DNA from: a phage
Direction: 5' to 3' (one strand)
NCBI GenBank assembly: GCA_021469345.1
Contig: GCA_021469345.1_3049.1
Length of the DNA: 64,000 bases
Part shown: positions 46,922 through 64,000 of the stretch, in pieces
Numbering within the stretch: the stretch's first letter is position 1
Layout of the letters: every line of letters starts with the position of its first letter
The notes under the pieces: generated by a model
The model's input: only the letters and a program-made list of their open reading frames with translations
Databases searched by the model: none
Told to the model about the DNA's origin: nothing
Translations under genes and position numbers: made by a program

Positions 46922-46929
46922 GGAAAATT

Positions 46930-47593: not shown

Positions 47594-47754
47594 ACAGATA
47601 TATGACGCTAGAAGAGGCTAAAGCTAAAGCAAATGAAGCAATGGATTTGCTTCTTAAAATTGGCAGTAAAATGATGGAAGAAAATGAGAAATATATCCAG
47701 GAAAACAAAATTCCTGACGGTCCATTAGTAGGCAAAAGGAAATCACATGATTGA
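47590..47754 (+). CDS. hypothetical small protein (54 aa)
   Basis: ATG 47590 with ATGA overlap at both ends. Confidence 0.35.
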
Positions 47755-48217
47755 AGTAGCAAAACACTATTCAATAGAATTTATGTCTAAAGAAGGTAAA
47801 TCAGTAAATACACTTGATAAAAAGTGCTCATTAATTATTCCTTTAGCAGAAAATCCGGATCTTTTAATTAAAGATATAAAAGAAAGAAAATATCCAGAAA
47901 ATATTATTCTAATTATAAAGCATACTGAAGATATTTTGCAGAATACTGATTCACCGTTTTCTTCTTCTGAAGCTTTAACTATTAAAGGCTATAAAAGAGC
48001 CCATGAATATGGTCTTTTTGACATGTTTGAAGACGATAAAGTTAAATTAGCGAGTCAACCTTCTAAAAGTAAAACATTCATTATTGAAGATATTAAAGAT
48101 ATAAATGCATTTGTTAGGATGGTCTGGGCTCATTTTGATGTTGGACTACGCTGGAGAATGTCCGAAGAAGAAAGAAAGATCATTGAAACTAATCGTAAAT
48201 TTGGTTTTTATCGCTAG
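47747..48217 (+). CDS. hypothetical protein (mrh position)
   Basis: 156-aa ORF upstream of modB. Confidence 0.5.
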
Positions 48218-48225
48218 GAATTAAT

Positions 48226-48408
48226 ATGGATTTATTTGAGATGTTAGAAGATAATCATTCTACGAATAACCAGAATGATTCTAGTGATTATAAGAAAGAA
48301 TACCGTATAGTATTACAGAATTATGGAATTGAAGCCCCAGATGCTCTTCTAGAAGAACTAGCTTCATACCATCTTGACCCTCCGCCCTGGGCTCCCTGGG
48401 CAAAATAA
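48226..48408 (+). CDS. hypothetical small acidic protein
   Basis: 60-aa ORF. Confidence 0.45.
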   Translation: MDLFEMLEDNHSTNNQNDSSDYKKEYRIVLQNYGIEAPDALLEELASYHLDPPPWAPWAK

Positions 48409-48418
48409 TTCAAAAAGT

Positions 48419-48449
48419 TGTTTACTTTCCTTTCTAACGATGATATGAT
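48419..48449 (+). promoter_or_regulatory. early promoter (GTTTAC ... TATGAT)
   Basis: GTTTAC 48419-48424; -10 like element 48443-48449. Confidence 0.45.
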
Positions 48450-48475
48450 AGCTTCTGAAGTATACGGAGGCTATC

Positions 48476-49099
48476 ATGATTATTAATCTTGCAGATGTTG
48501 AACAGTTATCTATAAAAGCTGAAAGCGTTGATTTTCAATATGATATGTATAAAAAAGTCTGTGAAAAATTTACTGACTTTGAGCAATCTGTTCTTTGGCA
48601 ATGTATGGAAGCCAAAAAGAATGAAGCTCTTCATCGGCAATTGAATAAAATCATTAAAAAGCATTTAACTAAATCGCCTTATCAGTTATATCGTGGTATA
48701 TCAAAATCAACAGAAGAACTTATTAAAGATTTACAAGTTGGAGAAGTGTTTTCAACGAACAGAGTAGATTCATTTACTACTAGTTTGCACACAGCATGTG
48801 GTTTTTCTTATGTTGAATATTCCACTGAAATAATATTTCGCTTAAAAACTGATAAAGCTTTTAATTATTCTGACCATATCAGCGATATTATACTTTCTTC
48901 TCCTAATACTGAGTTCAAGTACACGTATGAAGATACTGATGGGCTAGATTCAGAGCGTACTGATAACTTAATGATGATTGTGCGTGAACAAGAATGGATG
49001 ATTCCAATTGGAAAGTATAAAATAACTTCTATTTCAAAAGAAAAATTACACGATTCATTTGGAACATTTAAAGTTTATGATATTGAGGTAGTTGAATGA
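48476..49099 (+). CDS. modB: ADP-ribosyltransferase ModB
   Basis: 207 aa; R (YRG), S-x-S and E (QEWMIP) catalytic triad pattern. Confidence 0.8.
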   Translation: MIINLADVEQLSIKAESVDFQYDMYKKVCEKFTDFEQSVLWQCMEAKKNEALHRQLNKIIKKHLTKSPYQLYRGISKSTEELIKDLQVGEVFSTNRVDSFTTSLHTACGFSYVEYSTEIIFRLKTDKAFNYSDHISDIILSSPNTEFKYTYEDTDGLDSERTDNLMMIVREQEWMIPIGKYKITSISKEKLHDSFGTFKVYDIEVVE

Positions 49100-49698
49100 A
49101 ATACTCAGTAATGCAACTAAAAGATTTTAAAATAAAATCAATGGATGCATCGGTGCGTGCTTCTATTCGTGAAGAATTACTTTCTGAAGGGTTTAATTTA
49201 TCTGAAATTGAACTTTTAATTCATTGTATTACTAATAAGCCAGATGACCATACTTGGTTAAATGAAATAATCAAATCTCGTTTGGTTCCAAACGATAAAC
49301 CTCTTTGGAGAGGTGTTCCAGCTGAGACTAAGCAGGTGTTAAATCAAGGAATTGATATTATTACATTTGATAAAGTCGTATCAGCTTCATATGATAAAAA
49401 TATAGCTCTACATTTTGCTTCCGGTTTAGAGTATAACACACAAGTTATTTTTGAATTCAAAGCTCCCATGGTATTCAATTTCCAGGAGTATGCTATAAAA
49501 GCTCTACGCTGTAAAGAATACAATCCAAACTTTAAGTTTCCGGATAGCCATCGTTATCGTAATATGGAATTAGTTTCAGATGAACAAGAAGTAATGATAC
49601 CAGCTGGAAGTGTATTTAGAATTGCAGATAGATATGAGTACAAAAAGTATTCAACATATACTATCTATACTCTTGATTTTGAAGGATTTAATCTATAA
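49096..49698 (+). CDS. modA: ADP-ribosyltransferase ModA
   Basis: 200 aa; LWRG, SAS, EQEVMIP motifs; paralog of modB. Confidence 0.8.
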   Translation: MKYSVMQLKDFKIKSMDASVRASIREELLSEGFNLSEIELLIHCITNKPDDHTWLNEIIKSRLVPNDKPLWRGVPAETKQVLNQGIDIITFDKVVSASYDKNIALHFASGLEYNTQVIFEFKAPMVFNFQEYAIKALRCKEYNPNFKFPDSHRYRNMELVSDEQEVMIPAGSVFRIADRYEYKKYSTYTIYTLDFEGFNL

Positions 49699-49755
49699 TG
49701 GAAGGACTTAGATTCATTATACCATGAAATTTTTAAAGCATTTTTACATAAAGTT

Positions 49756-49785
49756 GTTTACAATCTGAAGTAAAAATGTTATAGT
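49756..49785 (+). promoter_or_regulatory. early promoter (GTTTAC-N18-TATAGT)
   Basis: GTTTAC 49756-49761; TATAGT 49780-49785. Confidence 0.5.
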
Positions 49786-49821
49786 ATAAGTAGTTAACCG
49801 TCCGTAAGATGTGAGAAAAAT

Positions 49822-50571
49822 ATGAAACTGTCTAATAATCAAATTCGTAAAATTAAACGTCGTTTAGAGCATACTCAGGCATCTGCCAAAAGACGTTCTA
49901 AAGATTTTAACTTAGACTTCAATTACATTAAGAACATTTTAGATCAGAAAGTTTGCGCTTACTCGGGTGAATCTTTCAATAACTCTGTTGAAGGTGAGAA
50001 ATTATCCTTAGAACGTTTTAATAACGATATCGGCTACATTAAAGGTAATGTTATCCCAGTTAAGAAAAAATATAACACGGCTCGTTCTGATTTAACATTA
50101 GAAGAACTTATTGAGAAACGTGATGCCATTGCAAGACGTATCGCTAATCCTTCTGCCCGTAAAGTAGAGAAACTTAATCTCGACGAGAAGAAGTGGGCCC
50201 AAATTAAAAAGGTTTATGGCACTATTTTAAAAATCCGAGCAAAACGTGAAAATCGTGTTAAGCATATGGCGAACATGATGAAAAATCAACCTTTATCTAA
50301 CGAATCTAAACTTAAAATTGTTGCTTTGAAAGCACGCATTAATGGCTCACATCAAGCAGAAGGTCATGAACTTACTAAACTCAACGTTCTTCTTAAAGGC
50401 TCTGACTGGAAAACTAAAACTAAATTAACTAACGCTGAATCGCTTTTCGAAACATATGATAAAGTTATCCAAGGTCTGCAACGTTTTGAAAAGATTGGTT
50501 TCATTGGTAAATTAAAATTGAAACGTGGCTTACCACTTAGCGCATCATTATTCCAACTGATTAAAGGTTAA
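49822..50571 (+). CDS. srd: Srd-like protein (sigma-related)
   Basis: 249 aa; position between modA and dda. Confidence 0.65.
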   Translation: MKLSNNQIRKIKRRLEHTQASAKRRSKDFNLDFNYIKNILDQKVCAYSGESFNNSVEGEKLSLERFNNDIGYIKGNVIPVKKKYNTARSDLTLEELIEKRDAIARRIANPSARKVEKLNLDEKKWAQIKKVYGTILKIRAKRENRVKHMANMMKNQPLSNESKLKIVALKARINGSHQAEGHELTKLNVLLKGSDWKTKTKLTNAESLFETYDKVIQGLQRFEKIGFIGKLKLKRGLPLSASLFQLIKG

Positions 50572-50573
50572 TT

Positions 50574-50885
50574 ATGGTTTATGTATATGCAATAGTTTAT
50601 CGAGATATGGAAGGATTTACTGTCCCGGTTCCACTTGATGAGCATCGTCCTGCAGTATTTTTTAGAAAGGATATTGCAGATAAAGTTTTCGATACTTTGA
50701 AAACGCAGTATAAAACAGATTTAAAAATGGGAGTTCTAAGAATGGTCGAAACTCCGCGTAAGTTCTGGTTTAATAAGCTTGAAATGAAACACGTTAAACT
50801 AGATGCGGAGACACAAAGATTATATCAGCGAATTTTAGATACTGGGCGTATTGTTAGTATTCCAATTGCAGGGACTTTCCGATGA
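50574..50885 (+). CDS. hypothetical protein (dda.1 position)
   Basis: 103-aa ORF. Confidence 0.55.
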   Translation: MVYVYAIVYRDMEGFTVPVPLDEHRPAVFFRKDIADKVFDTLKTQYKTDLKMGVLRMVETPRKFWFNKLEMKHVKLDAETQRLYQRILDTGRIVSIPIAGTFR

Positions 50886-52201
50886 CATTTGATGATTTGA
50901 CAGAAGGCCAGAAAAATGCCTTTAACATTGTTATGAAGGCTATTAAAGAAAAGAAACATCATGTAACTATTAATGGACCTGCCGGTACCGGTAAGACTAC
51001 TCTTACTAAGTTCATCATTGAAGCTTTAATATCTACGGGTGAAACTGGTATTATTTTAGCAGCTCCTACGCATGCGGCTAAAAAGATTCTTTCAAAACTA
51101 TCAGGGAAAGAAGCGAGTACTATTCACAGTATTCTTAAAATTAACCCAGTTACGTATGAAGAAAACGTTCTTTTTGAACAGAAGGAAGTGCCAGATTTAG
51201 CTAAATGTAGGGTATTAATCTGCGACGAAGTGTCAATGTATGATAGAAAGCTATTTAAAATTCTGCTTTCAACTATCCCGCCGTGGTGTACTATAATTGG
51301 AATAGGTGATAATAAGCAAATTAGACCTGTTGATCCAGGAGAAAACACTGCTTATATTAGTCCATTCTTTACACATAAAGATTTTTATCAGTGTGAACTC
51401 ACTGAAGTTAAACGCAGTAATGCTCCTATTATTGATGTAGCTACTGACGTTCGTAACGGTAAGTGGATTTATGATAAAATTGTTGACGGGCATGGAGTAC
51501 GTGGATTTACTGGTGATACCGCTTTACGTGATTTTATGGTAAATTATTTTTCAATCGTCAAATCTCTAGATGATTTGTTTGAAAATCGCGTAATGGCATT
51601 TACGAATAAATCTGTTGATAAGTTAAATAGCATTATTCGTAAAAAGATTTTTGAAACTGATAAAGATTTTATTGTCGGTGAAATTATTGTAATGCAGGAA
51701 CCATTAATTAAAACATATAAAATTGATGGAAAGCCTGTGTCAGAAATTATTTTTAATAACGGACAGTTAGTTCGTATTATAGAAGCAGAGTATACATCAA
51801 CCTTTGTTAAAGCTCGTGGTGTTCCTGGAGAATATCTAATTCGTCATTGGGATTTAACAGTAGAAACTTACGGCGATGATGAATATTATCGTGAAAAGAT
51901 TAAAATAATTTCATCTGATGAAGAACTGTATAAGTTTAACCTATTTTTAGGTAAAACGGCAGAAACTTATAAAAATTGGAACAAAGGCGGAAAAGCTCCG
52001 TGGAGTGATTTTTGGGATGCTAAATCACAGTTTAGTAAAGTGAAAGCACTTCCTGCATCAACATTCCATAAAGCTCAGGGCATGTCTGTAGACCGTGCTT
52101 TCATTTATACGCCTTGTATTCATTATGCAGATGCTGAATTGGCCCAACAACTTCTTTATGTTGGTGTTACCCGTGGTCGTTATGATGTATTTTATGTATG
52201 A
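50882..52201 (+). CDS. dda: DNA helicase Dda (SF1B)
   Basis: 439 aa; Walker A GPAGTGKTT, Walker B LICDEVSM. Confidence 0.95.
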   Translation: MTFDDLTEGQKNAFNIVMKAIKEKKHHVTINGPAGTGKTTLTKFIIEALISTGETGIILAAPTHAAKKILSKLSGKEASTIHSILKINPVTYEENVLFEQKEVPDLAKCRVLICDEVSMYDRKLFKILLSTIPPWCTIIGIGDNKQIRPVDPGENTAYISPFFTHKDFYQCELTEVKRSNAPIIDVATDVRNGKWIYDKIVDGHGVRGFTGDTALRDFMVNYFSIVKSLDDLFENRVMAFTNKSVDKLNSIIRKKIFETDKDFIVGEIIVMQEPLIKTYKIDGKPVSEIIFNNGQLVRIIEAEYTSTFVKARGVPGEYLIRHWDLTVETYGDDEYYREKIKIISSDEELYKFNLFLGKTAETYKNWNKGGKAPWSDFWDAKSQFSKVKALPASTFHKAQGMSVDRAFIYTPCIHYADAELAQQLLYVGVTRGRYDVFYV

Positions 52202-52222
52202 TTAAATTTGAGGAAGCTATTC

Positions 52223-52468
52223 ATGGAAATAACTAAAGATCAGTTTTATCTTCTTCAGGATAAAGTAAGCGAAATTTATGAAATTGCTTATAGCAAAAAT
52301 CGTGAAACTGTAAAAATAGAATCTAGTAAGTTGAGGCTTCAATTAGAAGAAATTGAACGAGATTTAATTGCGTTAGAATTCTTTTGTGGTGAAGTGAAAA
52401 CTGTTACAATTAATGATTATGTTTTAGGCGAAATTAGCTATCTTTATGAGGCGATTATTAATGATTGA
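52223..52468 (+). CDS. small helical protein (dexA.2 position)
   Basis: 81 aa from ATG 52223 (RBS GAGGAAG); paralog of next ORF. Confidence 0.5.
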   Translation: MEITKDQFYLLQDKVSEIYEIAYSKNRETVKIESSKLRLQLEEIERDLIALEFFCGEVKTVTINDYVLGEISYLYEAIIND

Positions 52469-52703
52469 GTTGAGTTGGTACCAGTTTAAATCTCTTATGA
52501 CAAATGTTAAAGCTGTCATTGAAGAAAATCCAGGTCCTGAAAATATTACTATTCGCGAAAAAGCTTTAAAGATAGTATACAGTCTTGAAGAGATACAAAA
52601 AGATATTGAATCTATGGCAAAATTTATTGACGAGCCTATTAATAAAGTTTATATCCAAGACTATACTGTAGGTCAAATTCGCGATTTAGCAAGGAAAATT
52701 TAA
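52461..52703 (+). CDS. small helical protein (dexA.1 position)
   Basis: 80 aa from ATG 52461. Confidence 0.5.
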   Translation: MIELSWYQFKSLMTNVKAVIEENPGPENITIREKALKIVYSLEEIQKDIESMAKFIDEPINKVYIQDYTVGQIRDLARKI

Positions 52704-53386
52704 TGTTTGATTTTATTATAGATTTTGAAACAATGGGAAGCGGTGAAAAGGCAGCTGTTATTGATTTGGCTGTTATTGCCTTTGACCCTAATCCAGAAGT
52801 AGTTGAAACATTCGATGAACTAGTTTCACGTGGCATTAAAATCAAATTTGATTTAAAAAGCCAAAAAGGACATCGTCTTTTTACTAAAAGCACTATCGAA
52901 TGGTGGAAGAATCAATCCCCTGAAGCTCGAAAAAATATTGCACCATCAGATGAAGATGTAAGCATCATTGATGGTATTGCAAAATTTAATGATTACATCA
53001 ATGCACATAATATCGATCCTTGGAAATCTCAGGGTTGGTGTCGTGGAATGTCGTTTGATTTTCCAATTTTAGTCGATCTCATTCGCGATATTCAACGTCT
53101 TAATGGCGTTTCTGAGAATGAGCTTGATACATTTAAGTTAGAACCGTGTAAATTTTGGAATCAGCGTGATATTCGTACCAGAATTGAAGCACTTCTGCTT
53201 GTTCGTGATATGACCACGTGTCCTCTTCCAAAAGGAACCTTAGATGGATTTGTTGCGCATAATTCTATTCATGACTGTGCGAAAGACATCCTGATGATGA
53301 AGTATGCTTTGCGATACGCTATGGGTCTTGAAGATGCTCCATCAGAGGAAGAGTGCGATCCTCTATCTCTTCCAACAAAACGATAA
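52703..53386 (+). CDS. dexA: exonuclease A (DEDD family)
   Basis: 227 aa; N-terminal DFETMG acidic exonuclease motif. Confidence 0.9.
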   Translation: MFDFIIDFETMGSGEKAAVIDLAVIAFDPNPEVVETFDELVSRGIKIKFDLKSQKGHRLFTKSTIEWWKNQSPEARKNIAPSDEDVSIIDGIAKFNDYINAHNIDPWKSQGWCRGMSFDFPILVDLIRDIQRLNGVSENELDTFKLEPCKFWNQRDIRTRIEALLLVRDMTTCPLPKGTLDGFVAHNSIHDCAKDILMMKYALRYAMGLEDAPSEEECDPLSLPTKR

Positions 53387-53392
53387 AAAGTT

Positions 53393-53422
53393 GTTTACTT
53401 CCTCAGTTAGTTGTGGTATTAT
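53393..53422 (+). promoter_or_regulatory. early promoter (GTTTAC-N18-TGGTATTAT)
   Basis: GTTTAC 53393-53398; TATTAT 53417-53422. Confidence 0.5.
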
Positions 53423-53449
53423 AACACCATAGCTACTGAGGATAATAAA

Positions 53450-53950
53450 ATGAAAATTTATCGTGTTGAATCATCGTTTAGTATTCTTAATTATGAAGAT
53501 GCTATAACAATACGTCGAAATCTTTGTGTTCAAATAACGCCGTACAGGAGTATAATAGATTCATGGAGCGAAGAGTGGCTATTACACGTAGGTTATGACA
53601 GACCTAATTTTATGCATCATAGCGATAATAATAAAAGAATTCCTTTACCACACGAAGATAAACTATTAGTTAAAAACGCTAATAAAGTAATTAATACTAA
53701 GTTCAAGAAAGATTATGTTGGAGTAGAATATCATATTCCAGGATGGTTTATAGGTCTTTATCATTTTGCTTTCGCTAGCGAATATGATATGATGAGATGG
53801 TTCACGCGAGAAGAGCGGGAAGAATTATCTTCTAAAGGATTTTATCTCGCTGTATACGAAGTTCCTGAAGATGAAGTTATCATTGGTGGGCACCAAGTAA
53901 TGTTCCGCAAATCGCATGCTGAATTAAAAGGCTTTATTACTTTAGATTAA
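53450..53950 (+). CDS. hypothetical protein (motB-region)
   Basis: 166 aa from ATG 53450 (RBS GAGGATAA). Confidence 0.55.
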   Translation: MKIYRVESSFSILNYEDAITIRRNLCVQITPYRSIIDSWSEEWLLHVGYDRPNFMHHSDNNKRIPLPHEDKLLVKNANKVINTKFKKDYVGVEYHIPGWFIGLYHFAFASEYDMMRWFTREEREELSSKGFYLAVYEVPEDEVIIGGHQVMFRKSHAELKGFITLD

Positions 53951-53960
53951 AGAGAAAATC

Positions 53961-54398
53961 ATGATTAAAAATAATGCTGTTTATCAATTGAAAAAATTTG
54001 ATGAAATTAAGAATTTTTCGGTACTGTCTAATACAGCTCATAATAAGTTTTGTGAACTTCTTGGTTTAACTGGCGGATATCCTTTTACTGTTATTAGTGT
54101 TAATAGCGGAATTCTTATCGATATGATGTATATTGAAATTAGAAACTATTATGGAATGGTATCACCGCTTATTATTTATGAAAAAGATTTTAGTCTATTG
54201 ACAGAAATTGAAAAACCTGAAGATCCAACTGATCTACTGTGTAAGGCAGTTTATATTCGTCGTCCATTCGCGAATCCTGTGGGTGGATGGGTGACTGATC
54301 AGTGGATTGAAGATGGTGTTGAACTTCTGAACGTAGTTCATGCTGGAGAGTACTCTGTAGTTCCTCGCAGCGCAGTGATTAATGTTCGTGTAAGCTAG
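53961..54398 (+). CDS. hypothetical protein, paralog of the following gene
   Basis: 145 aa; C-terminal DQWIEDGVELLNVVHAGEYSVVP. Confidence 0.55.
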   Translation: MIKNNAVYQLKKFDEIKNFSVLSNTAHNKFCELLGLTGGYPFTVISVNSGILIDMMYIEIRNYYGMVSPLIIYEKDFSLLTEIEKPEDPTDLLCKAVYIRRPFANPVGGWVTDQWIEDGVELLNVVHAGEYSVVPRSAVINVRVS

Positions 54399-54427
54399 TT
54401 TACAAACTCTTGGGACCAGAGTATAAT
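54398..54427 (+). promoter_or_regulatory. early promoter (GTTTAC-N18-TATAAT)
   Basis: GTTTAC 54398-54403; TATAAT 54422-54427. Confidence 0.55.
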
Positions 54428-54471
54428 GGTCCCGTGGAGTATAAAATCTTTTTAACAAGTGAGAGATAACT

Positions 54472-54969
54472 ATGATTATTAATATTGGTGAATTAGCTCG
54501 TGTATCTGATAAATCCCGTTCTAAAGCAGCAGGAAAATTGGTCGAAATTGTAAGCATTCAGCTTAAACACGGCGTTAAAGATGAAGATTCTGAAGTAAAA
54601 GTGCGTATCATTCCTAAAGATGGAAAGTCTAAACCTCAGTTTGGTTATGTTCGCGCGAAATTTCTTGAATCTGCGTTTTTGAAAGCTGTTCCCGCTAAAG
54701 GAATTGAAACGATTGATACTTCGCATGTAGGTGTAGACTTTAAGTGGAAACTCGGTCAGGCTATTAAGTTCATTGCTCCTTATGAATTCGAATTTACCGA
54801 AGATGAGGAAGGGGTTGTTCAAAAACATCGTACTCGTGCTATGTGTGCATACATTACCGATCAATGGGTAGAAGATGGCGTTAAGTTGTACAACGCGGTA
54901 TTTTTAGGAACATACAAAGTCATTCCTGAAAGTTGGATTAAACACTATAGCAAAGCTCGCTGTGCATAA
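54472..54969 (+). CDS. hypothetical protein (MotB-like position), paralog of previous gene
   Basis: 165 aa; C-terminal DQWVEDGVKLYNAVFLGTYKVIP. Confidence 0.55.
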   Translation: MIINIGELARVSDKSRSKAAGKLVEIVSIQLKHGVKDEDSEVKVRIIPKDGKSKPQFGYVRAKFLESAFLKAVPAKGIETIDTSHVGVDFKWKLGQAIKFIAPYEFEFTEDEEGVVQKHRTRAMCAYITDQWVEDGVKLYNAVFLGTYKVIPESWIKHYSKARCA

Positions 54970-54974
54970 AGTTT

Positions 54975-55095
54975 AAAATTTTTTCATAAAACTATATACA
55001 TCAGTAGTTGATTATGGTACTATATCAATATCAACTACTGATACAGAAAACAACTTGGAGAATAAAATGGAAATTCGCCAAAGGTGCTGATACTC
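54975..55095 (+). repeat. degenerate copy of the early promoter plus 5' gene segment found at 35792-35895
   Basis: Shared AAAATTTTTTCA, TATGGTACTATA, ATCAACT, TTGGAGAATaAAATGgAAATtCGC; -35 hexamer mutated; residual ORF is 7 codons. Confidence 0.5.
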
Positions 55096-55140
55096 TTCTG
55101 AAACGCATCGCTCCAATGTTTAATTAATGAGGAAATTGTA

Positions 55141-55356
55141 ATGAAACGTAAAATTGTTCAGAACTGCACTAATGATGAATTTGAAGATGTATTATTTGAT
55201 CCAAATTTGGTAGTAGTTCAAAAGGAACATACTAGCAAGTTTACTCACTTGACTTCGGTTTATGTGTATGAGAAAGTCGGTGATAAACAGCCAATTTACG
55301 GTGTATTTCGTGAAATTACTGAAGATGGCACAACTTACTGGAAGGAAATTTATTAA
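55141..55356 (+). CDS. cef: Cef-like protein (modifier of suppressor tRNAs position)
   Basis: 71 aa; size and position. Confidence 0.55.
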
Positions 55357-55775
55357 TGGCTATTAAATTTGAAGTTAATAAATGGTATCAATTTAAAAAT
55401 AAACAAGCTCAAGAAAATTTTATTAAAGACCATACTGATAACGGAATCTATGCACGACGTTTAGGTATGGAGCCTTTTAAAATTTTAGATGCTGATTATC
55501 TTGGGCGTCCTACTAAAATTATGACATCCATAGGTGTGCTCAAACGTTGTGCCGGTGGTGATATCCTTGACGAAAACTTTATCTGGCTCTCTACTAACGA
55601 AGCTGGGTTCTTTGATGAAGTTGAAAATCCATATCAGGCTGCTGAAGAACAAGAGCAGGAAGAGCAAGAACAAATAGAAGATTTCACAGAATTCCCGGTA
55701 ATGAAAGTTACTATTGAAAATAATGAACAAGCATGGTCCTTGTATCAAATGTTGAAAGCCCACTTTAAGGAATAA
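55356..55775 (+). CDS. goF: GoF/ComC-alpha-like protein
   Basis: 139 aa; acidic [10 protein letters not shown] tract; position before 39. Confidence 0.55.
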
Positions 55776-55777
55776 TT

Positions 55778-55954
55778 ATGCCTCTTTATGATTATAAATG
55801 TCAATCCAAAGACTGCGCAAAAGAATACGAAAAAATCAAGAAAATTTCTGAAATGGATACTGATGTATGTCCTGATTGTCATCGGATTGCTATTCGGTTA
55901 GTTTCCGCTCCTAAGCATGTGAATGGTGGTTTTTACGACTTACTTAAAGGGTAA
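55778..55954 (+). CDS. FmdB-type zinc-ribbon small protein
   Basis: 58 aa; MPLYDYKCQSKDC...CPDCH. Confidence 0.45.
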   Translation: MPLYDYKCQSKDCAKEYEKIKKISEMDTDVCPDCHRIAIRLVSAPKHVNGGFYDLLKG

Positions 55955-55956
55955 TT

Positions 55957-56328
55957 ATGTTTAAAATCGGTAAGAAATATCGTATTCGCGAAGGCGAAGA
56001 AAAGAAATATCTAATGTCTGCTATTTATAGGAATGGTTCTATTAATGCTGTAATATCTACAAGCGAATTTATCGTTGAAGATATGAAAGGTAATAATGTT
56101 ACAATGATTAGTACAGCATCTGGAAATGATGGAAAAATTCTTCACAGTTTTCAGAGTAATGTTCTAATTTATGATGAAGAATTTGACCTATTCGAAGAAG
56201 TTACAGAAGATTTTGATTTTGAATGCACCATCACTATGAAATCTGGCGACCCTCTTTCTTTTACAGTTAAAGATGAAAGAAGCCGTTTGAGAATTATTAG
56301 TCTTCTTCAAGCCATTAAATTTAAGTGA
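55957..56328 (+). CDS. hypothetical protein
   Basis: 123-aa ORF. Confidence 0.5.
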   Translation: MFKIGKKYRIREGEEKKYLMSAIYRNGSINAVISTSEFIVEDMKGNNVTMISTASGNDGKILHSFQSNVLIYDEEFDLFEEVTEDFDFECTITMKSGDPLSFTVKDERSRLRIISLLQAIKFK

Positions 56329-56594
56329 AAATTATGAAATATGTTAATCGTTCTATCGCGGCATTAGTATTAACAGTATCTTTAGTAGGATGTACTGATG
56401 CTGATAATGCAACCAAAGTTTTGTCTTCAAGCGGTTTTACTAATATTGAAATCACTGGATATAATTGGTTCGGTTGCTCTGAAAATGATTTCCAACATAC
56501 TGGATTTCGTGCTATTGGACCTACCGGGCAGAAAGTAGAAGGAACAGTATGTTCTGGGCTGTTCTTTAAGGATTCAACTATCCGTTTTAAATAA
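56325..56594 (+). CDS. putative lipoprotein
   Basis: 89 aa; signal peptide with lipobox LVGC. Confidence 0.5.
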   Translation: MKIMKYVNRSIAALVLTVSLVGCTDADNATKVLSSSGFTNIEITGYNWFGCSENDFQHTGFRAIGPTGQKVEGTVCSGLFFKDSTIRFK

Positions 56595-56595
56595 A

Positions 56596-56610
56596 GGCCT
56601 TCGGGCCTTT
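56596..56610 (+). terminator. intrinsic terminator GGCCUUCGGGCC
   Basis: GGCCTTCGGGCC then TTTAGCTTT. Confidence 0.55.
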
Positions 56611-56635
56611 AGCTTTATGATTATTGGAGTATAAT
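56611..56635 (+). promoter_or_regulatory. putative middle promoter (MotA-box-like aGCTTTA + TATAAT)
   Basis: AGCTTTA 56611-56617, 12-nt spacer, TATAAT 56630-56635. Confidence 0.4.
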
Positions 56636-56662
56636 ATTCCCGAAACCAAACGAGGATAAGTG

Positions 56663-58213
56663 ATGATTAAGAATGAAATTAAAATTCTGAGCGATATTGA
56701 ACATATCAAAAAGCGTAGCGGCATGTATATTGGCTCTTCTGCTAATGAAATGCATGAGCGCTTTCTGTTTGGTAAATGGGAAAGTGTTCAGTATGTACCT
56801 GGTCTTGTTAAGCTTATTGATGAAATTATCGATAACTCAGTAGATGAAGGTATTCGTACTAAGTTTAAATTCGCAAATAAAATTAATGTTACTATTAAAA
56901 ACAATCAAGTAACAGTTGAAGATAACGGTCGTGGTATTCCACAAGCGATGGTTAAAACACCTACTGGTGAAGAAATTCCTGGCCCTGTTGCTGCATGGAC
57001 TATTCCAAAAGCAGGTGGTAACTTCGGTGATGATAAAGAGCGCGTCACTGGCGGTATGAACGGTGTTGGTTCTAGTTTAACTAATATTTTTTCTGTGATG
57101 TTTGTCGGTGAAACTGGCGACGGTCAAAATAATATTGTAGTTCGTTGTTCAAACGGCATGGAAAATAAATCGTGGGAAGATATTCCTGGAAAATGGAAAG
57201 GAACTCGTGTTACTTTCATTCCTGATTTTATGTCATTTGAAACTAATGAGCTGTCCCAAGTTTATCTTGACATTACACTAGATCGTCTCCAGACACTTGC
57301 TGTTGTTTATCCTGATATTCAATTTACCTTTAATGGTAAAAAGGTTCAGGGCAATTTTAAGAAATATGCACGACAGTATGATGAACATGCTATCGTTCAA
57401 GAACAAGAAAATTGTTCTATTGCGGTTGGTCGTTCACCGGATGGTTTTCGTCAGTTGACGTACGTCAATAACATTCATACTAAGAATGGTGGCCATCACA
57501 TTGACTGTGTTATGGATGATATTTGTGAAGACCTTATTCCACAAATCAAACGCAAGTTCAAAATTGATGTAACTAAAGCGCGTGTTAAAGAATGTTTGAC
57601 TATCGTTATGTTTGTTCGTGATATGAAAAACATGCGATTTGATTCTCAAACTAAAGAGCGTTTGACTTCTCCATTTGGTGAAATCCGTAGTCATATTCAA
57701 CTTGATGCTAAAAAGATTTCACGTGCTATTCTAAATAATGAAGCGATTTTGATGCCGATTATTGAAGCTGCACTAGCTCGTAAATTGGCGGCAGAAAAAG
57801 CAGCAGAAACTAAAGCAGCTAAAAAGGCTTCTAAAGCTAAGGTTCATAAACATATTAAAGCGAATCTTTGCGGTAAAGATGCTGACACTACTCTTTTCTT
57901 GACTGAGGGTGATTCTGCTATCGGATATCTTATTGATGTTCGTGATAAAGAACTTCATGGTGGTTATCCATTACGTGGTAAAGTTCTTAACAGCTGGGGT
58001 ATGTCATATGCTGATATGCTTAAAAACAAAGAACTGTTTGATATTTGCGCAATCACTGGATTAGTTCTCGGTGAAAAGGCGTTTGAAGAAAAAGAAGATG
58101 GCGAGTGGTTTACTTTCGAACTAAATGGCGATACAATTATCGTAAATGAAAATGATGAAGTACAGATTAATGGTAAATGGATAACAGTAGGTGAATTACG
58201 AAAAAATCTATAA
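56663..58213 (+). CDS. 39: DNA topoisomerase II large subunit gp39 (GyrB-like ATPase)
   Basis: 516 aa from ATG 56663; GHKL ATPase motifs; ends where the mobA insertion begins. Confidence 0.95.
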   Translation: MIKNEIKILSDIEHIKKRSGMYIGSSANEMHERFLFGKWESVQYVPGLVKLIDEIIDNSVDEGIRTKFKFANKINVTIKNNQVTVEDNGRGIPQAMVKTPTGEEIPGPVAAWTIPKAGGNFGDDKERVTGGMNGVGSSLTNIFSVMFVGETGDGQNNIVVRCSNGMENKSWEDIPGKWKGTRVTFIPDFMSFETNELSQVYLDITLDRLQTLAVVYPDIQFTFNGKKVQGNFKKYARQYDEHAIVQEQENCSIAVGRSPDGFRQLTYVNNIHTKNGGHHIDCVMDDICEDLIPQIKRKFKIDVTKARVKECLTIVMFVRDMKNMRFDSQTKERLTSPFGEIRSHIQLDAKKISRAILNNEAILMPIIEAALARKLAAEKAAETKAAKKASKAKVHKHIKANLCGKDADTTLFLTEGDSAIGYLIDVRDKELHGGYPLRGKVLNSWGMSYADMLKNKELFDICAITGLVLGEKAFEEKEDGEWFTFELNGDTIIVNENDEVQINGKWITVGELRKNL

Positions 58214-59009
58214 TGACTTAATAGTGCGGGGTAAAACCCGCGTTTCTAAATTTAAGGGTGAAATTCATCATATCCTTCCAAGATCAATGGGAGGTTCTGA
58301 TGATAAAGAAAATTTGGTGAAACTGACTTTTCGTGAACACTTTTTAGCACATTTTCTACTATATAAAATTCATCGTAATCGTGAAATGGCATATGCGATG
58401 AATAGAATGTTAAACACTGAAAAATATTTACGTTCTAGTAAATTATATGAAATTGCTAGAATTTACCATCAAAGAGCAGTATCTGAATGGTCAAAAAACT
58501 TTATGAAAGATAAAGTTTTAATGAGAAGTATTAAATCGGGTAAATGCGCCTTATTAATTAAAGGATCATTTAACTCAAAGGAATGGTGCGGTGTTAATAA
58601 AGGTGTTAAGCTTCCTGGAATTAAAGGCATGACATGCTTTAAAAATGAAAAAGGCGAAGTTTTTCGTCTTCATGTTAATGATCCACGCATTAAAGCTGAA
58701 AAATTAGTTGGTATTGGAAATACTGTTGCTGCTACTGCAAAAGCAGCTGAACTTGAAAAAGCGAAACCATGGTATAATAAATCAGCGACAAATCCAGAGG
58801 CTGTAAAATTAATACCAAATTTATATGAATGGTACGTCACGAAATATGACCCCGATCATTATAAACGAACGGGAGTTGCTAAATGGAAATCAGTTAATAA
58901 TATAACTGTGAATTCAAAATTATTCGGCCGAGCATTTAATGAATTTAAACGCGGTTGGATTCCTGATGAAAAGTTCTATGAGGTGTATAATGAAATTTGT
59001 AAAAATTGA
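58191..59009 (+). CDS. mobA: HNH homing endonuclease MobA
   Basis: 272 aa; GEIHHILPRSMGGSDDKENLVKLTFREHFLAH HNH motif; GTG start overlapping gene 39 end. Confidence 0.8.
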   Translation: MNYEKIYNDLIVRGKTRVSKFKGEIHHILPRSMGGSDDKENLVKLTFREHFLAHFLLYKIHRNREMAYAMNRMLNTEKYLRSSKLYEIARIYHQRAVSEWSKNFMKDKVLMRSIKSGKCALLIKGSFNSKEWCGVNKGVKLPGIKGMTCFKNEKGEVFRLHVNDPRIKAEKLVGIGNTVAATAKAAELEKAKPWYNKSATNPEAVKLIPNLYEWYVTKYDPDHYKRTGVAKWKSVNNITVNSKLFGRAFNEFKRGWIPDEKFYEVYNEICKN

Positions 59010-59522
59010 TTCTTCTAGCGTTGATATGAAAAAATATAAATTGCAGAACAATGTTCGTCGTTCTATTAAATCCTCTTCAATGAACTATGCTAATGTCGCT
59101 ATTATGACAGACGCAGATCACGATGGATAGCCTTCGGGCTATCTATAGAAATACCTCATAATTAAGAGATTATTGGATTAGGTTCTATTTATCCTTCTCT
59201 GCTCGGATTTTTTAGTAATTGGCCAGAATTGTTTGAGCAAGGACGAATTCGCTTTGTCAAAACTCCTGTAATCATCGCTCAGGTCGGTAAAAAACAAGAA
59301 TGGTTTTATACAGTCGCTGAATATGAGAGTGCCAAAGATGCTCTACCTAAACATAGCATCCGTTATATTAAAGGACTTGGCTCTTTGGAAAAATCTGAAT
59401 ATCGTGAGATGATTCAAAATCCAGTATATGATGTTGTTAAACTTCCTGAGAACTGGAAAGAGCTTTTTGAAATGCTCATGGGAGATAACGCTGACCTTCG
59501 TAAAGAATGGATGAGCCAGTAG
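58990..59522 (+). CDS. 60: DNA topoisomerase II subunit gp60, translated with a 50-nt ribosomal bypass (coding gap 59128-59177)
   Basis: MKFVKIDSSS...DADHDG, take-off GGA 59125-59127, UAG, hairpin; landing GGA 59175-59177, then LGSIYPSLLGFF... in frame to stop 59520-59522. Confidence 0.85.
59128..59177 (+). other. translational bypass (hop) element, 50-nt untranslated coding gap
   Basis: GAT GGA TAG CCTTCGGGCTATCTATAG...ATTATT GGA TTA; matching GGA codons 50 nt apart; stem-loop at the take-off site. Confidence 0.85.
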
Positions 59523-59551
59523 TTTACTTTACCACAAGGATGTGGTATAAT
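59522..59551 (+). promoter_or_regulatory. early promoter (GTTTAC-N18-TGGTATAAT)
   Basis: GTTTAC 59522-59527; TATAAT 59546-59551. Confidence 0.6.
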
Positions 59552-59576
59552 TAATTGGGCAAATGAGGATATTGAA

Positions 59577-59780
59577 ATGAAATCATATAAAGTAAATTTA
59601 GAACTTTTTGATAAAGCAGTTCATCGAGAATATAGAATCATTCAACGCTTTTTCGATATGGGAGAAGCCGAAGAATTTAAAAACCGCTTTAAGGATATTA
59701 GAGATAAAATTCAATCCGACACCGCAACTAAAGATGAACTACTAGAAGTTGCTGAAGTTATTAAGCGTAATATGAATTAA
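59577..59780 (+). CDS. hypothetical small protein (rIIA.1 position)
   Basis: 67 aa, RBS GAGGATATTGAA. Confidence 0.5.
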
Positions 59781-59790
59781 TGAGGAAATT

Positions 59791-61968
59791 ATGATTATCA
59801 CCACTGAAAAAGAAACAATTCTTGGTAATGGTTCTAAATCAAAAGCATTTAGCATCACAGCATCTCCTAAAGTATTTAAAATTCTGTCATCTGATTTGTA
59901 TACAAACAAAATTCGCGCAGTAGTCCGTGAATTGATTACTAACATGATTGATGCCCATGCACTCAATGGAAATCCTGAAAAATTTATCATACAAGTTCCT
60001 GGACGTTTAGATCCACGATTTGTTTGTCGAGATTTTGGTCCGGGTATGAGTGATTTTGATATTCAGGGTGATGATAATTCTCCTGGTCTGTATAATTCAT
60101 ACTTCAGTTCATCTAAGGCTGAATCTAATGATTTCATTGGCGGATTTGGTTTAGGTTCTAAATCTCCATTTAGTTATACTGATACATTTAGTATTACTTC
60201 GTATCATAAAGGTGAAATTCGTGGTTATGTAGCTTACATGGATGGCGATGGCCCACAGATTAAACCTACATTCGTAAAAGAAATGGGTCCAGATGATAAA
60301 ACTGGTATTGAAATCGTAGTTCCAGTTGAAGAAAAAGACTTTAGAAACTTTGCTTATGAAGTTTCTTATATCATGCGACCATTCAAAGATTTGGCTATCA
60401 TTAATGGCCTTGACCGCGAAATTGATTATTTTCCGGATTTTGATGACTATTACGGTGTAAATCCAGAAAGATACTGGCCTGATCGTGGTGGATTATATGC
60501 TATCTACGGCGGTATTGTTTATCCTATCGATGGTGTTATTAGAGACCGTAACTGGTTAAGCATTCGCAATGAAGTGAATTACATTAAGTTTCCAATGGGT
60601 TCACTGGATATTGCTCCATCTCGCGAGGCTCTTTCACTGGATGATCGTACTCGTAAAAATATCATTGAACGAGTTAAAGAACTCAGTGAGAAAGCATTTA
60701 ATGAAGATGTAAAACGATTTAAAGAATCTACATCTCCTCGTCACACATATCGTGAATTGATGAAGATGAGGTATTCTGCTCGAGATTATATGATTAGTAA
60801 TTCAGTCAAATTCACGACTAAAAATCTGTCATATAAGAAGATGCAGAGCATGTTTGAACCTGACAGTAAGTTATGCAATGCAGGAGTTGTGTATGAAGTA
60901 AATCTTGACCCTCGGCTGAAACGTATTAAGCAAAGCCATGAAACTTCAGCCGTTGCATCAAGCTATCGTCTGTTTGGTATTAATACAACAAAAATTAATA
61001 TCGTTATTGATGATATTAAAAATCGTGTTAATATTGTCCGTGGATTAGCACGTGCGTTAGATGATAGTGAATTTAATAATACTTTAAATATTCATCACAA
61101 TGAGCGTCTTCTGTTTATTAACCCAGAAGTAGAATCGCAGATTGATTTGCTTCCTGATATTATGGCAATGTTTGAAAGTGATGAAGTTAACATTCATTAT
61201 TTGTCAGAAATCGAAGCTTTAGTTAAAAGCTATATTCCAAAGGTAGTTAAAAGTAAAGCTCCTCGTCCTAAAGCTGCTACAGCATTTAAATTTGAAATTA
61301 AAGATGGGCGATGGGAAAAAGAGGAACTATTTACACTTACGTCAGAAGCAGATGAAATTACTGGTTATGTAGCGTATATGCATCGTTCTGATATTTTCTC
61401 TATGGATGGTACTACATCTCTTTGTCATCCATCTATGAATATTTTGATTCGTATGGCTAATCTTATTGGCATTAATGAATTTTATGTTATTCGTCCGCTT
61501 TTACAGAAAAAGGTAAAAGAGCTTGGTCAGTGCCAATGTATTTTTGAAGCTTTGCGTGATTTATATGTAGATGCTTTTGATGATGTAGATTATGATAAGT
61601 ATGTAGGTTATTCAAGTTCAGCTAAACGATATATTGATAAAATTATCAAGTATCCTGAGTTAGATTTTATGATGAAGTACTTCAGTGTAGATGAAGTTTC
61701 TGAAGAATATATACGACTCGCTAATATGGTTAGTTCATTACAGGGTGTATATTTTAATGGTGGAAGAGATACCATCGGTCATGACATCTGGACAGTAACT
61801 AATCTTTTTGATGTATTATCAAATAATGCTTCAAAAAACAGTGATAAAATGGTTGCTGAGTTTACCAAGAAATTCCGTATTGTTTCCGACTTCATCGGTT
61901 ATCGCAGCTCTTTAAGTGATGATGAAGTTTCCCAAATCGCTAAAACTATGAAGGCCCTTGCGGCCTAA
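59791..61968 (+). CDS. rIIA: rIIA protein (membrane-associated, GHKL ATPase-like N-terminus)
   Basis: 725 aa; size, N-terminal ATPase-like motifs and position match T4 rIIA. Confidence 0.95.
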
Positions 61969-61979
61969 TAAGGAAAATT

Positions 61980-62918
61980 ATGTACAATATTAAATGCCTG
62001 ACCAAAAACGAACAAGCTGAAATTGTTAAGCTGTATTCAAGTGGTAATTACACCCAACAGGAATTGGCTGATTGGCAAGGTGTATCAGTTGACACAATCC
62101 GTCGTGTTTTGAAAAATGCTGAAGAAGCTAAACGCCCTAAAGTTACTATTAGCGGTGATATTACAGTTAAAGTTAATAGCGATGCAGTTATTGCTCCAGT
62201 TGCTAAATCTGACATTATTTGGAATGCATCTAAAAAATTCATTTCAATTACTGTTGACGGTGTAACTTATAACGCAACTCCTAATACTCATTCAAACTTC
62301 CAGGAAATTCTTAATCTGCTTGTAGCGGATAAGCTGGAAGAAGCTGCGCAAAAAATTAATGTTCGTCGCGCTGTTGAAAAATATATTTCCGGCGATGTTC
62401 GAATTGAAGGTGGAAGCTTGTTCTATCAAAATATCGAATTGCGGTCCGGTTTGGTTGATCGTATTCTCGATTCGATGGAAAAAGGTGAAAACTTTGAATT
62501 TTATTTTCCGTTCTTGGAAAATCTGTTGGAAAACCCAAGCCAAAAAGCGGTATCTCGACTCTTTGATTTCTTGGTAGCAAACGATATTGAAATTACAGAA
62601 GATGGTTACTTCTATGCTTGGAAAGTAGTTCGTGACAACTACTTTGACTGTCACTCAAACACCTTTGATAACAGTCCTGGTAAAGTAGTTAAAATGCCGC
62701 GTACTCGTGTGAATGACGATGATACACAAACTTGTTCTCGTGGTCTGCATGTGTGTTCTAAATCTTATATTCGTCACTTTGGCAGTTCAACCAGCCGAGT
62801 TGTAAAAGTTAAAGTACATCCGCGTGATGTAGTATCAATTCCGATTGATTACAACGATGCTAAAATGCGTACCTGCCAATACGAAGTAGTTGAAGACGTT
62901 ACTGAACAATTTAAATAA
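61980..62918 (+). CDS. rIIB: rIIB protein
   Basis: 312 aa immediately downstream of rIIA. Confidence 0.95.
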   Translation: MYNIKCLTKNEQAEIVKLYSSGNYTQQELADWQGVSVDTIRRVLKNAEEAKRPKVTISGDITVKVNSDAVIAPVAKSDIIWNASKKFISITVDGVTYNATPNTHSNFQEILNLLVADKLEEAAQKINVRRAVEKYISGDVRIEGGSLFYQNIELRSGLVDRILDSMEKGENFEFYFPFLENLLENPSQKAVSRLFDFLVANDIEITEDGYFYAWKVVRDNYFDCHSNTFDNSPGKVVKMPRTRVNDDDTQTCSRGLHVCSKSYIRHFGSSTSRVVKVKVHPRDVVSIPIDYNDAKMRTCQYEVVEDVTEQFK

Positions 62919-62933
62919 GGGCTTCGGCCCTTA
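62919..62933 (+). terminator. stem-loop GGGCUUCGGCCC, probable terminator
   Basis: GGGCTTCGGCCC then TTATCATATT. Confidence 0.5.
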
Positions 62934-62950
62934 TCATATTAAGGAAAATT

Positions 62951-63145
62951 ATGTTAGGTTATCAAGCACGAGTAAAAGAAGAATACGATCAATTAATGCT
63001 CAAAATTAATGCACTGAGCAAATTTTTAGAAAGCACAAAGTTTCTAACAGTTAATGCAGTTGAGCAAGAACTTCTACTTTCACAGTTCATCTCAATGAAA
63101 TCTTATGCTGAGTGTCTAGAGAAAAGAATTGCACAATTCAAATAA
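62951..63145 (+). CDS. hypothetical small protein
   Basis: 64 aa, RBS AAGGAAAA. Confidence 0.5.
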   Translation: MLGYQARVKEEYDQLMLKINALSKFLESTKFLTVNAVEQELLLSQFISMKSYAECLEKRIAQFK

Positions 63146-63150
63146 AATAA

Positions 63151-63170
63151 GGGCTTCGGCCCTTTTGTTT
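63151..63170 (+). terminator. intrinsic terminator GGGCUUCGGCCC + U tract
   Basis: GGGCTTCGGCCC then TTTTGTTTT. Confidence 0.65.
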
Positions 63171-63182
63171 TAAGGAAAAATT

Positions 63183-63512
63183 ATGATTTATTGTATGAAT
63201 ATCGGTGATTCCGACATAAAAGAGATTAAACTGCACGGAAATCATCACGCTAATATTGTGTACTGTAATAAATTTGAGTTTGGTCACGAAAAACTTGGGT
63301 TTCTTTACTGTAATGATGTTATAGTCATGGATAAAAAGGAGCTCGATGAACTTGACCGTGAGTCTTTAGATGAAAATGACCGAATTTATTACGGCACTCT
63401 TAAAGTATATAACGCTTATCTCAGCGGCAAAAAGGAAAGTCTAAATGCAGAAAACGAATCCGGGTTTACAGAGACTATTTCAGATTCCGACATTTACCCT
63501 ATCGAACAGTGA
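63183..63512 (+). CDS. hypothetical acidic protein
   Basis: 109-aa ORF. Confidence 0.5.
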   Translation: MIYCMNIGDSDIKEIKLHGNHHANIVYCNKFEFGHEKLGFLYCNDVIVMDKKELDELDRESLDENDRIYYGTLKVYNAYLSGKKESLNAENESGFTETISDSDIYPIEQ

Positions 63513-63525
63513 CTTGACTAGTGAA

Positions 63526-64000
63526 ATGAAGGTCAAAATTGCTGATACAGCAAGATACTCTTTAAAACAAAACCCGAACCAGGATAAAGCAGAAGTTATC
63601 GAAAGATGTCGTATCGCTGTGTACGCAGAATTTTTTGTAGCAGATTGGCTAAGCGGGTATGTTAACAAAGGCCAAGAGGACGTTAATGACCCGTATACAT
63701 ACGCATGGGATGTATTGGCGCATCCAAGATACTGCGGGCTTCGTGTAGAAGTTAAGACACATCAAACTGACTCACGTTGGATTTCTGTAACAACAGGATG
63801 CAGCGGAGAGTATCCATATGGTTCTGGAATAAATCTAGGGCCCATTCTGAATCATCAGATCGCTGACTGTATAATTATATTCAACACTAAAGAAATTCAC
63901 CCAGGTGTCATCCAGTACACTCCGAAGTTCATCGGTGATAGAGAAGACCTTCGTAAGGTTGTAAGAAAAAGCAACTACAACGGATGGTATCTTTCCATTT
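63526..64000 (+). CDS. hypothetical protein, 5' part only; DenB (endonuclease IV)-like by position
   Basis: Open frame from ATG 63526 runs to window end (MKVKIADTARYSLKQNP...); lies downstream of rIIB. Confidence 0.4.
   Translation, partial: MKVKIADTARYSLKQNPNQDKAEVIERCRIAVYAEFFVADWLSGYVNKGQEDVNDPYTYAWDVLAHPRYCGLRVEVKTHQTDSRWISVTTGCSGEYPYGSGINLGPILNHQIADCIIIFNTKEIHPGVIQYTPKFIGDREDLRKVVRKSNYNGWYLSI

Follow-up and report, generated by a model that had tools for sequence, protein, structure and literature searches.

Can two open reading frames that lie apart from each other, and in different frames, encode a single protein? In the window analysed here (a stretch of 64,000 nt of phage DNA, contig GCA_021469345.1_3049.1), a reading frame whose product ends in DADHDG runs into a UAG stop codon, and topoisomerase-like coding sequence resumes a short distance downstream. 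A mechanical list of open reading frames divides the region into 58939-59130 and 59229-59522, and the question is whether these are separate genes, the remains of a broken gene or one gene read across a gap. Sequence comparison indicates that the site is almost certainly the programmed translational bypass of phage T4 gene 60, borne on a MobA element in a Tequatrovirus. The anatomy of the site, its identity with T4, the collinearity of its product with uninterrupted homologs and the covariation of its RNA are presented below; for the ribosomal mechanism, its efficiency of about 50% and the protection from MobA we rely on experiments published for T4, whose sequence is identical here. The bypass of gene 60 is a classic exception to the collinearity of mRNA and protein, studied in detail by genetics, kinetics and cryo-EM.

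The reading of the site starts from the following features.

58980..58983, plus strand: Shine-Dalgarno sequence of gene 60, GAGG, 6 nt before ATG 58990 (read from the sequence).
58990..59127, plus strand: gene 60 segment 1, codons 1-46, MKFVKIDSSSVDMKKYKLQNNVRRSIKSSSMNYANVAIMTDADHDG (identical to 5np6_C; the CDS join of the T4T record starts here).
59125..59127, plus strand: take-off codon GGA, Gly46 (direct reading and script check).
59128..59130, plus strand: UAG stop directly after the take-off codon (direct reading and script check).
59128..59177, plus strand: untranslated coding gap of 50 nt (the T4T misc_feature maps exactly; the 50 nt are absent in T2).
59175..59177, plus strand: landing codon GGA, matched to the take-off codon (direct reading and script check).
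59178..59522, plus strand: gene 60 segment 2, from UUA (Leu47) through codon 160 to the stop codon TAG (continuous with segment 1 in T2 gp39, 8yo3 and 8ylu; Pfam TOPRIM_C).

The original prediction had placed a GGA-UAG at 59125-59130 and a second GGA, 50 nt downstream, at 59175-59177, and both positions are correct to the base. The two codons can be served by one tRNA and lie 50 nt apart, inside the range of about 20-52 nt expected of a non-coding gap in a bypass site. Counted between the codons the spacing is 47 nt, and the coding gap as conventionally defined is 50 nt, 59128-59177. Stop codons close the gap in all three frames (TAG 59128 together with TAG 59146; TAA 59159; TAA 59163), TAA 59163 being in the frame of segment 2. 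The reading frame from 59178 is +2 relative to the upstream ORF, begins LGSIYPSLLGFF and ends with TAG at 59520-59522; the translation of 59178-59522 is LGSIYPSLLGFFSNWPELFEQGR...EWMSQ*. The claim that the two ORFs make up one gene stands, codons 1-46 joined to 59178-59519 yielding a product of 160 aa. The ORF boundaries attached to that claim do not. ATG 58939 is merely a mechanical ORF start, the true start of gene 60 being ATG 58990, which gives 46 codons; similarly, the start at 59229 is a mechanical TTG, and decoding resumes at UUA 59178.

Next, we compared the locus with 50,697 phage records by megablast. About 500 T4-like (Tequatrovirus) records match the 3' part of gene 60; only about 42 of these also have the left part of the locus (mobA, the gap and the 5' end of the gene). 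Identity is highest with vB_EcoM_112 (99.8%), followed by many T4 records (99.5%); the 50-nt gap and whole gene 60 match T4 records at no less than 99.5%, which is far beyond chance. In the T4T record HM137666, gene 60 is annotated as a two-piece CDS accompanied by a misc_feature, "non-coding translational bypass region in mRNA". An alignment with T4 gene 60 had been proposed as a check, and it works out exactly: when 56349 is added to the T4T locus positions, the CDS join falls on 58990-59522 and the misc_feature on 59128-59177. Within the gap there is not a single difference from T4T or from vB_EcoM_112 (100% identity). Recognition of the site as the known T4 gene 60 hop was therefore right, since the gap is base for base the annotated T4 bypass region and the product is T4 gp60. 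In T4, T4T, RB55, RB59 and vB_EcoM_112, all with the clade 1 MobA element, the gap, the matched codons, the UAG, the hairpin, the mini Shine-Dalgarno sequence, the nascent peptide and the 160-aa product are identical to those of the window. The finding is confirmed as real and correctly read; it is also already known and adds no new biology.

Identity extends to experimentally determined structures. Residues 1-160 of the joined product are 100% identical to the gp60 part of PDB entry 8yo3, the structure of a phage T4 topoisomerase II gp39-gp60 fusion (PMC11461880). Residues 1-46 agree completely (100%) with chain 5np6_C, the nascent peptide of a ribosome caught by cryo-EM while stalled at the gene 60 take-off site (PMC5462505). 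PHROG 7229 (DNA topoisomerase II) covers residues 1-160 of the joined product, and Pfam TOPRIM_C covers its C-terminal part.

Phages T2 and T6 possess the same protein without mobA, without the split and without the 50-nt gap, and allow us to follow the protein sequence across the junction. Residues 27-160 of the joined gp60 align to residues 472-605 of the uninterrupted T2 gp39 (605 aa) with 96% identity and gaplessly at the junction (...AIMTDADHDG followed directly by LGSIYPSLLGFF...). The uninterrupted 611-aa chain 8ylu_C, attributed to T6 by its paper (PMC11461880), aligns with the joined product in the same gapless way. Taken together, gp39 residues 1-473 and gp60 residues 27-160 correspond to T2 gp39 1-605 with 96-99% identity. 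In the DNA of the junction, T2 has GAT GGT CTA GGA where the window has GAT GGA, the 50 nt and then TTA GGT, a clean 50-nt indel. The sequence following the landing GGA in frame had been taken for the C-terminal part of the topoisomerase subunit, and 59178-59522 indeed matches both T4 gp60 and T2 gp39.

Bypassing in T4 depends on signals in the RNA and in the nascent peptide, and their counterparts in the window are located as follows.

59029..59079, plus strand: nascent-peptide bypass signal, codons 14-30, KKYKLQNNVRRSIKSSS (identical to T4).
59088..59115, plus strand: 5' stem-loop, ending 9 nt before the take-off codon (predicted fold; position according to Wills et al. 2024).
59123..59146, plus strand: take-off stem-loop with a 10-bp helix and a UUCG tetraloop, the 5' arm containing GGA and UAG (folding and covariation).
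59166..59168, plus strand: mini Shine-Dalgarno sequence GAG, followed by AUUAUU (6 nt) and the landing GGA (read from the sequence).
59192..59243, plus strand: 3' stem-loop, starting 14 nt after the landing codon (predicted fold; position according to Wills et al. 2024).

A hairpin at the stop codon had been noticed from the sequence, and it is real: its folding energy is -13.6 kcal/mol (z = -5.4), and none of 200 shuffled sequences was equally stable. It does not simply lie 3' of the stop, as had been described, because its 5' arm holds both the take-off GGA and the UAG; its tip is CC-UUCG-GG. We examined covariation of the hairpin in six distinct sequences, namely the window, S16, KARL-1, Pm5461, Thanatos-1 and the HY01 variant, the divergent carriers having been collected by blastn. 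Standard pairs occupy all 60 cells of the comparison, and four of the ten pairs have undergone compensatory double changes. In the control, where the 3' arm was slid by 1-3 columns, pairing falls to 18-43%. The third base of the take-off codon takes part in this covariation, forming A-U in the window and HY01, U-A in S16, Thanatos-1 and KARL-1, and G-C in Pm5461.

In the nascent peptide, all 46 of 46 residues agree with 5np6_C, including KKYK, Y16, R24, S28, Y33, M39, T40 and H44; roles of KKYK, Y16, R24 and S28 in the signal have been described (PMC5462505, PMC11194080). Upstream of the landing codon, a GAG, GGG, GGA or AGG is expected at a distance of 5-7 nt and in AU-rich surroundings; the window has the GAG at 59166-59168. 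The 3' stem-loop, a candidate barrier to forward slippage, has a predicted energy of -13.9 kcal/mol, with a z of only -1.9, and the stretch 59178-59260 shows no difference from T4T. Every bypass signal published for T4 appears at its expected place, the 5' stem-loop being weakened in prediction.

Comparable cassettes occur in other phages. The clade 1 cassettes of HY01 type (HY01, PEC04, pSe_SNUABM_01) represent the same element, with the same 50-nt gap, GGA/GGA codons and UAG as in the window. HY01 differs in having C at 59144 and T at 59147, by which a G-U pair becomes G-C, the hairpin is extended and the second in-frame UAG is lost; its nascent peptide carries V11I and L18S relative to the window. 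Cassettes of other clades, found in Salmonella phage S16, Proteus phage Pm5461, Shewanella phage Thanatos-1 and Acinetobacter phage KARL-1, occupy the same site after the Toprim DxDxDG motif; their DNA is only 70-80% identical to the window. They share the UAG after the take-off codon, the CC-UUCG-GG (or UUAG) tip and the conserved Y16, R/K24 and T40. Their inferred gaps and take-off/landing codons are 48 nt and GGU/GGC in S16, 51 nt and GGG/GGA in Pm5461, 52 nt and GGU/GGU in Thanatos-1, and 43 nt and GAU/GAC in KARL-1, each of the four codon pairs being readable by one tRNA. This comparison of gap lengths and codons reproduces the survey of Manning & Atkins 2022.

Outside phages, programmed bypassing is known from the mitochondrial 'byp' elements of Magnusiomyces capitatus, inserts of 27-55 nt that interrupt essential genes; their take-off and landing codons match, and the codon next to take-off is decoded poorly. 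A single genome holds many of them (81 inserts), they act in mitochondrial translation, and neither a homing endonuclease nor a nascent-peptide signal has been described for them. They are unrelated in sequence to the gap of the window, and the likeness rests on their published description.

IMG/VR was searched as well. The flank-anchored pattern GCAGATCACGATGGA N35-65 TTAGGTTCTATTTATCC gave no match there. The 19-nt hairpin core GGATAGCCTTCGGGCTATC was present in four IMG/VR contigs, which have only the hairpin in common and unrelated flanks; we consider them unrelated UUCG hairpins, not bypass cassettes.

Following the published work on T4, translation of the locus would proceed in these steps. 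Ribosomes would initiate at AUG 58990 and translate 46 codons, while the nascent chain with its KKYK...SSS motif, lying in the exit tunnel, would slow translation and lock the peptidyl-transferase centre. The ribosome would then stall with peptidyl-tRNA-Gly on GGA 59125-59127 and UAG in the A site, where the top of the hairpin (CC-UUCG-GG) would fold and keep release factor 1 off the stop codon. The anticodon would leave GGA, the nascent peptide would hold the peptidyl-tRNA on the ribosome, and an EF-G-driven pseudo-translocation would begin a slide of 50 nt without decoding. Direction would be given by refolding of the mRNA behind the ribosome, involving the 5' stem-loop and an extended take-off hairpin. 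At the end of the gap, pairing of the GAG with the anti-Shine-Dalgarno sequence, together with the 3' stem-loop, would help the tRNA to re-pair at the landing GGA. Decoding would resume at UUA 59178, producing one gp60 of 160 aa, which supplies the missing part of the Toprim domain in the split topoisomerase II.

According to published kinetics, ribosomes slide at about 1.2 nt/s, and about 1% of them drop off per nt. Efficiency of bypassing is about 50% (PMC5462505, PMC11194080, two bioRxiv preprints), and about half of the ribosomes fail to complete it, so that a 46-residue product or peptidyl-tRNA drop-off is to be expected too. A lack of ribosome footprints within the gap had been suggested as a test. 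Since ribosomes spend about 40 s sliding over the gap (PMC11194080), we would not regard absence of gap footprints as a clean prediction for ribosome profiling.

The alternative that survives best, though still very improbable, is that two separate polypeptides are made. Translation would stop at UAG 59128 and start independently downstream, for example at TTG 59229, giving gp39, a 46-aa peptide and a fragment of about 97 aa. Automatic annotation of many relatives (vB_EcoM_112, GRNsp7, S16, Pm5461) does list two CDSs, and according to the literature about half of the ribosomes never reach ORF2. Against this, there is no ATG, GTG or TTG between TAA 59163 and TTG 59229, and a start at 59229 would discard 17 conserved Toprim residues (LGSIYPSLLGFFSNWPE), which directly follow DADHDG in the enzymes of T2 and T6. 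Separate translation also gives no account of why the GGA codons match, why the hairpin covaries or why the nascent peptide is conserved. Mass spectrometry and in vitro translation published for T4, whose sequence is identical, have demonstrated a single polypeptide, the bypass product, spanning the gap. Annotation pipelines split the gene into two unrelated ORFs, and the correct product is the single 160-aa gp60; the locus should be annotated as one gene 60 CDS, join(58990..59127, 59178..59522).

It is extremely improbable that the 50 nt are removed from the RNA before translation, as a small intron or by processing and ligation. Such removal comes to mind because this group of phages is known for self-splicing introns with homing endonucleases, and the insert travels with a homing endonuclease. 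Group I and group II introns are, however, much longer than 50 nt, and no Rfam family, intron models included, reaches its gathering score anywhere in the 64-kb window. Purified in vitro translation bypasses on unspliced gene 60 mRNA, and cryo-EM shows the gap hairpin in the A site. In T4, the 50 nt were reportedly found in 1988 to be retained in the translated mRNA.

Equally slight is the chance that the gap is an artefact of sequencing or assembly, or that gene 60 is a decaying, non-functional pseudogene. Taken alone, an in-frame stop combined with a change of frame does resemble a broken gene, and a sequencing error had been named from the outset as a possible refutation. It is excluded by occurrence of the same 50-nt gap in about 42 independently sequenced and deposited phage genomes and in a Logan assembly contig (SRR17583572) that matches 3,819 nt of the window with 100% identity. 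Decay is contradicted by surroundings of the gap that are more conserved than the flanks, by the compensatory changes that keep the hairpin in distant lineages and by the intactness of both coding segments, whose product matches functional T4 gp60 exactly. A conventional programmed ribosomal frameshift (+2 or -1) joining the ORFs, to which the different frames of the segments and their distance (50 mod 3 = 2) might point, has a negligible chance of being correct, for the ORFs do not overlap, the stops in all three gap frames mean that no simple frameshift joins the segments, and the natural gaps of 51 nt (GRNsp7, Pm5461) and 48 nt (S16) are multiples of 3 and still require bypassing.

Translational bypass being the preferred reading, against which the sequence offers no evidence, we turn to the genomic context in which it resides.

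56663..58213, plus strand: gene 39, large subunit of the split topoisomerase II (ORF1: ATPase and N-terminal part of Toprim) (T2 alignment, Pfam).
58081..59186, plus strand: MobA mobile element, 1106 nt (homology to T2 DNA stops at 58080 and resumes at 59187, T2 locus positions 2436 and 2501).
58191..59009, plus strand: mobA, an intact HNH-family homing endonuclease of 272 aa (PHROG 655 'homing endonuclease', E = 3e-57).

The element supplies gp39 with its C-terminal extension and gp60 with its N-terminal extension; it also holds mobA, the 50-nt gap and another 9 nt. It has replaced 64 nt of the uninterrupted topoisomerase gene, in agreement with the element size of 1097-1106 nt and the 64-nt deletion given by Manning & Atkins 2022. 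Nine nt past the landing codon are typical of clade 1. The insertion lies after the DxDxDG motif of Toprim, in the order gene 39 with its tail, mobA and gene 60 with its N-terminal extension. Boundaries of the clade 1 element in T4 and the 272-aa length of its MobA are the same as in the window.

The last 43 or so codons of gene 39 (from 58081) are the C-terminal extension encoded by the element. Residues 2-474 of its mechanical ORF are identical to T2 gp39 1-473 at 472 of 473 positions, and Pfam matches are HATPase_c and DNA_gyraseB. The T4T annotation starts gene 39 at the ATG equivalent to 56663, the mechanical ORF at GTG 56660. In other frames, mobA shares sequence with the end of gene 39 and with the first 20 nt of gene 60. 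Its Pfam HNH match is weak (E = 7e-4, below the cut-off) and PHROGs was used instead. T4T annotates a CDS of the same length as MobA; in the T4 reference record AF158101, mobA is annotated as a pseudogene, whereas it is intact in the window.

The element far exceeds its surroundings in conservation. For the region 44000-64000 of the window the best database match is only about 94% identical, whereas the element agrees with T4 at more than 99.5% of its positions. Compared with T4T, mismatches make up about 3.6% of gene 39, 2-5% of rIIA and about 0.45% of the element. The host is a T4-like phage of the genus Tequatrovirus, not T4 itself. Conservation of the element above its surroundings would fit either a recent horizontal acquisition or a recent recombination tract, and for specialists it supports recent spread of the MobA element into a non-T4 genome. 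According to later papers citing Bonocora et al. 2011, the entire cassette is carried into T2 by MobA homing, and the 50-nt insert shields its carrier from nicking by MobA.

Only one detail of the locus is new: at 59091, a synonymous G-to-T change makes the predicted 5' stem-loop less stable. The window has T at this position, where all five of the clade 1 carriers checked base by base have G, and none of the database records matches the window at 100% across 58990-59186. The change turns GCG into GCU (Ala34). It removes the G59091-C59112 pair of the 5' stem-loop, whose predicted fold reaches -6.9 kcal/mol (z = -1.55) in the window versus -10.1 kcal/mol (z = -3.2) in T4. The T at 59091 is included in the identity with the Logan contig, so the variant is no one-off read error; the contig may come from the same isolate as the window.

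Efficiency of bypassing could differ somewhat from T4 as a result of this change. The effect is speculative, since clades other than clade 1 do not conserve the 5' stem-loop, which may be dispensable (Manning & Atkins 2022). We regard it as rather unlikely that the window represents a non-T4 Tequatrovirus with a recently gained T4-type MobA element, in which a private change at 59091, within a stretch reported as invariant among clade 1 carriers, alters bypass efficiency measurably, probably downward. If this were true, and the 5' stem-loop helps forward sliding, the phage would be a natural in vivo test of the role of this structure. To the specialist, the locus offers a natural single-base variant of the 5' stem-loop whose effect on bypass efficiency is testable.

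Comparison with phage T4T (HM137666) revealed uneven divergence along this part of the window. The MobA element (58081-59186), which carries mobA and the coding gap of gene 60, differs from T4T by approximately 0.45%, whereas its flanks (56660-58080 and 59600-61360) differ by approximately 3.6% in gene 39 and by 2-5% in rIIA. For 44000-64000, the closest match reaches only about 94%. Judged from these sequence comparisons, the element looks like a recent transfer into a non-T4 genome. One reading frame within it is listed here.

58191-59009, mobA, intact ORF of 272 aa

The frame is likewise intact in T4T, HY01 and vB_EcoM_112. In contrast, the T4 reference (AF158101) lists a pseudogene for MobA and, alongside it, ORF 60.1, and its length over 58191-59009 differs by 11 nt. 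Upstream, GTG 56660 opens the mechanical ORF of gene 39 and is also the start given in the vB_EcoM_112 annotation; in T4T and T2 the start is one codon later, at ATG 56663 (MIKNEIK...). Nearly all ORFs of at least 120 aa in the window lie on the + strand. No tRNA genes were found across the 64 kb, and no Rfam family reached the gathering threshold between 1 and 64000; the window is therefore without a recognisable group I intron.

In many deposited carrier genomes, gene 60 is not given as one joined CDS; it is broken into small CDSs, two or three in number and unrelated to each other, labelled 'hypothetical protein' or 'DNA topoisomerase II'. Such splitting, noted in the carrier records L003, L008-L013 and L015, is a systematic annotation error for the gene 60 recoding site.

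The cassette itself varies among carriers. In Salmonella phage GRNsp7 (ON720975.1), a clade 1 carrier, the gap comprises 51 nt (L013 539-589): the GAG mini-SD is separated from the landing GGA by a 7-nt spacer, which has one additional T. The extra nucleotide may reflect natural variation in gap length, which a frame-independent bypass would tolerate; the alternative is a sequencing error in a homopolymer. HY01 and pSe_SNUABM_01 share two substitutions in the take-off hairpin, both in its 3' arm: U to C at the equivalent of window 59144 and A to U at that of 59147. These convert a G-U pair to G-C and lengthen the helix, and the second in-frame UAG is lost. Their cassette nascent peptide carries V11I and L18S.

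The 19-nt core of the take-off hairpin, GGATAGCCTTCGGGCTATC, was found unchanged in four related IMG/VR viral contigs (L004-L007; e.g. L004 13150-13185). There it forms part of a longer hairpin, ACAGGGATAGCC-TTCG-GGCTATCTCCTGT, with an A/T-rich tract behind it, and the surrounding sequence is unrelated. These are probably not bypass cassettes; a terminator or stability hairpin is the probable identity.

In the gene 60 mRNA, position 59091 belongs to the 5' stem-loop; the window carries a synonymous T there, where all clade 1 carriers checked have G. The G59091-C59112 pair is thereby lost, and the stem-loop is predicted to be less stable, at -6.9 instead of -10.1 kcal/mol. Logan contig SRR17583572_323 matches the window across 3.8 kb, including the base at 59091.
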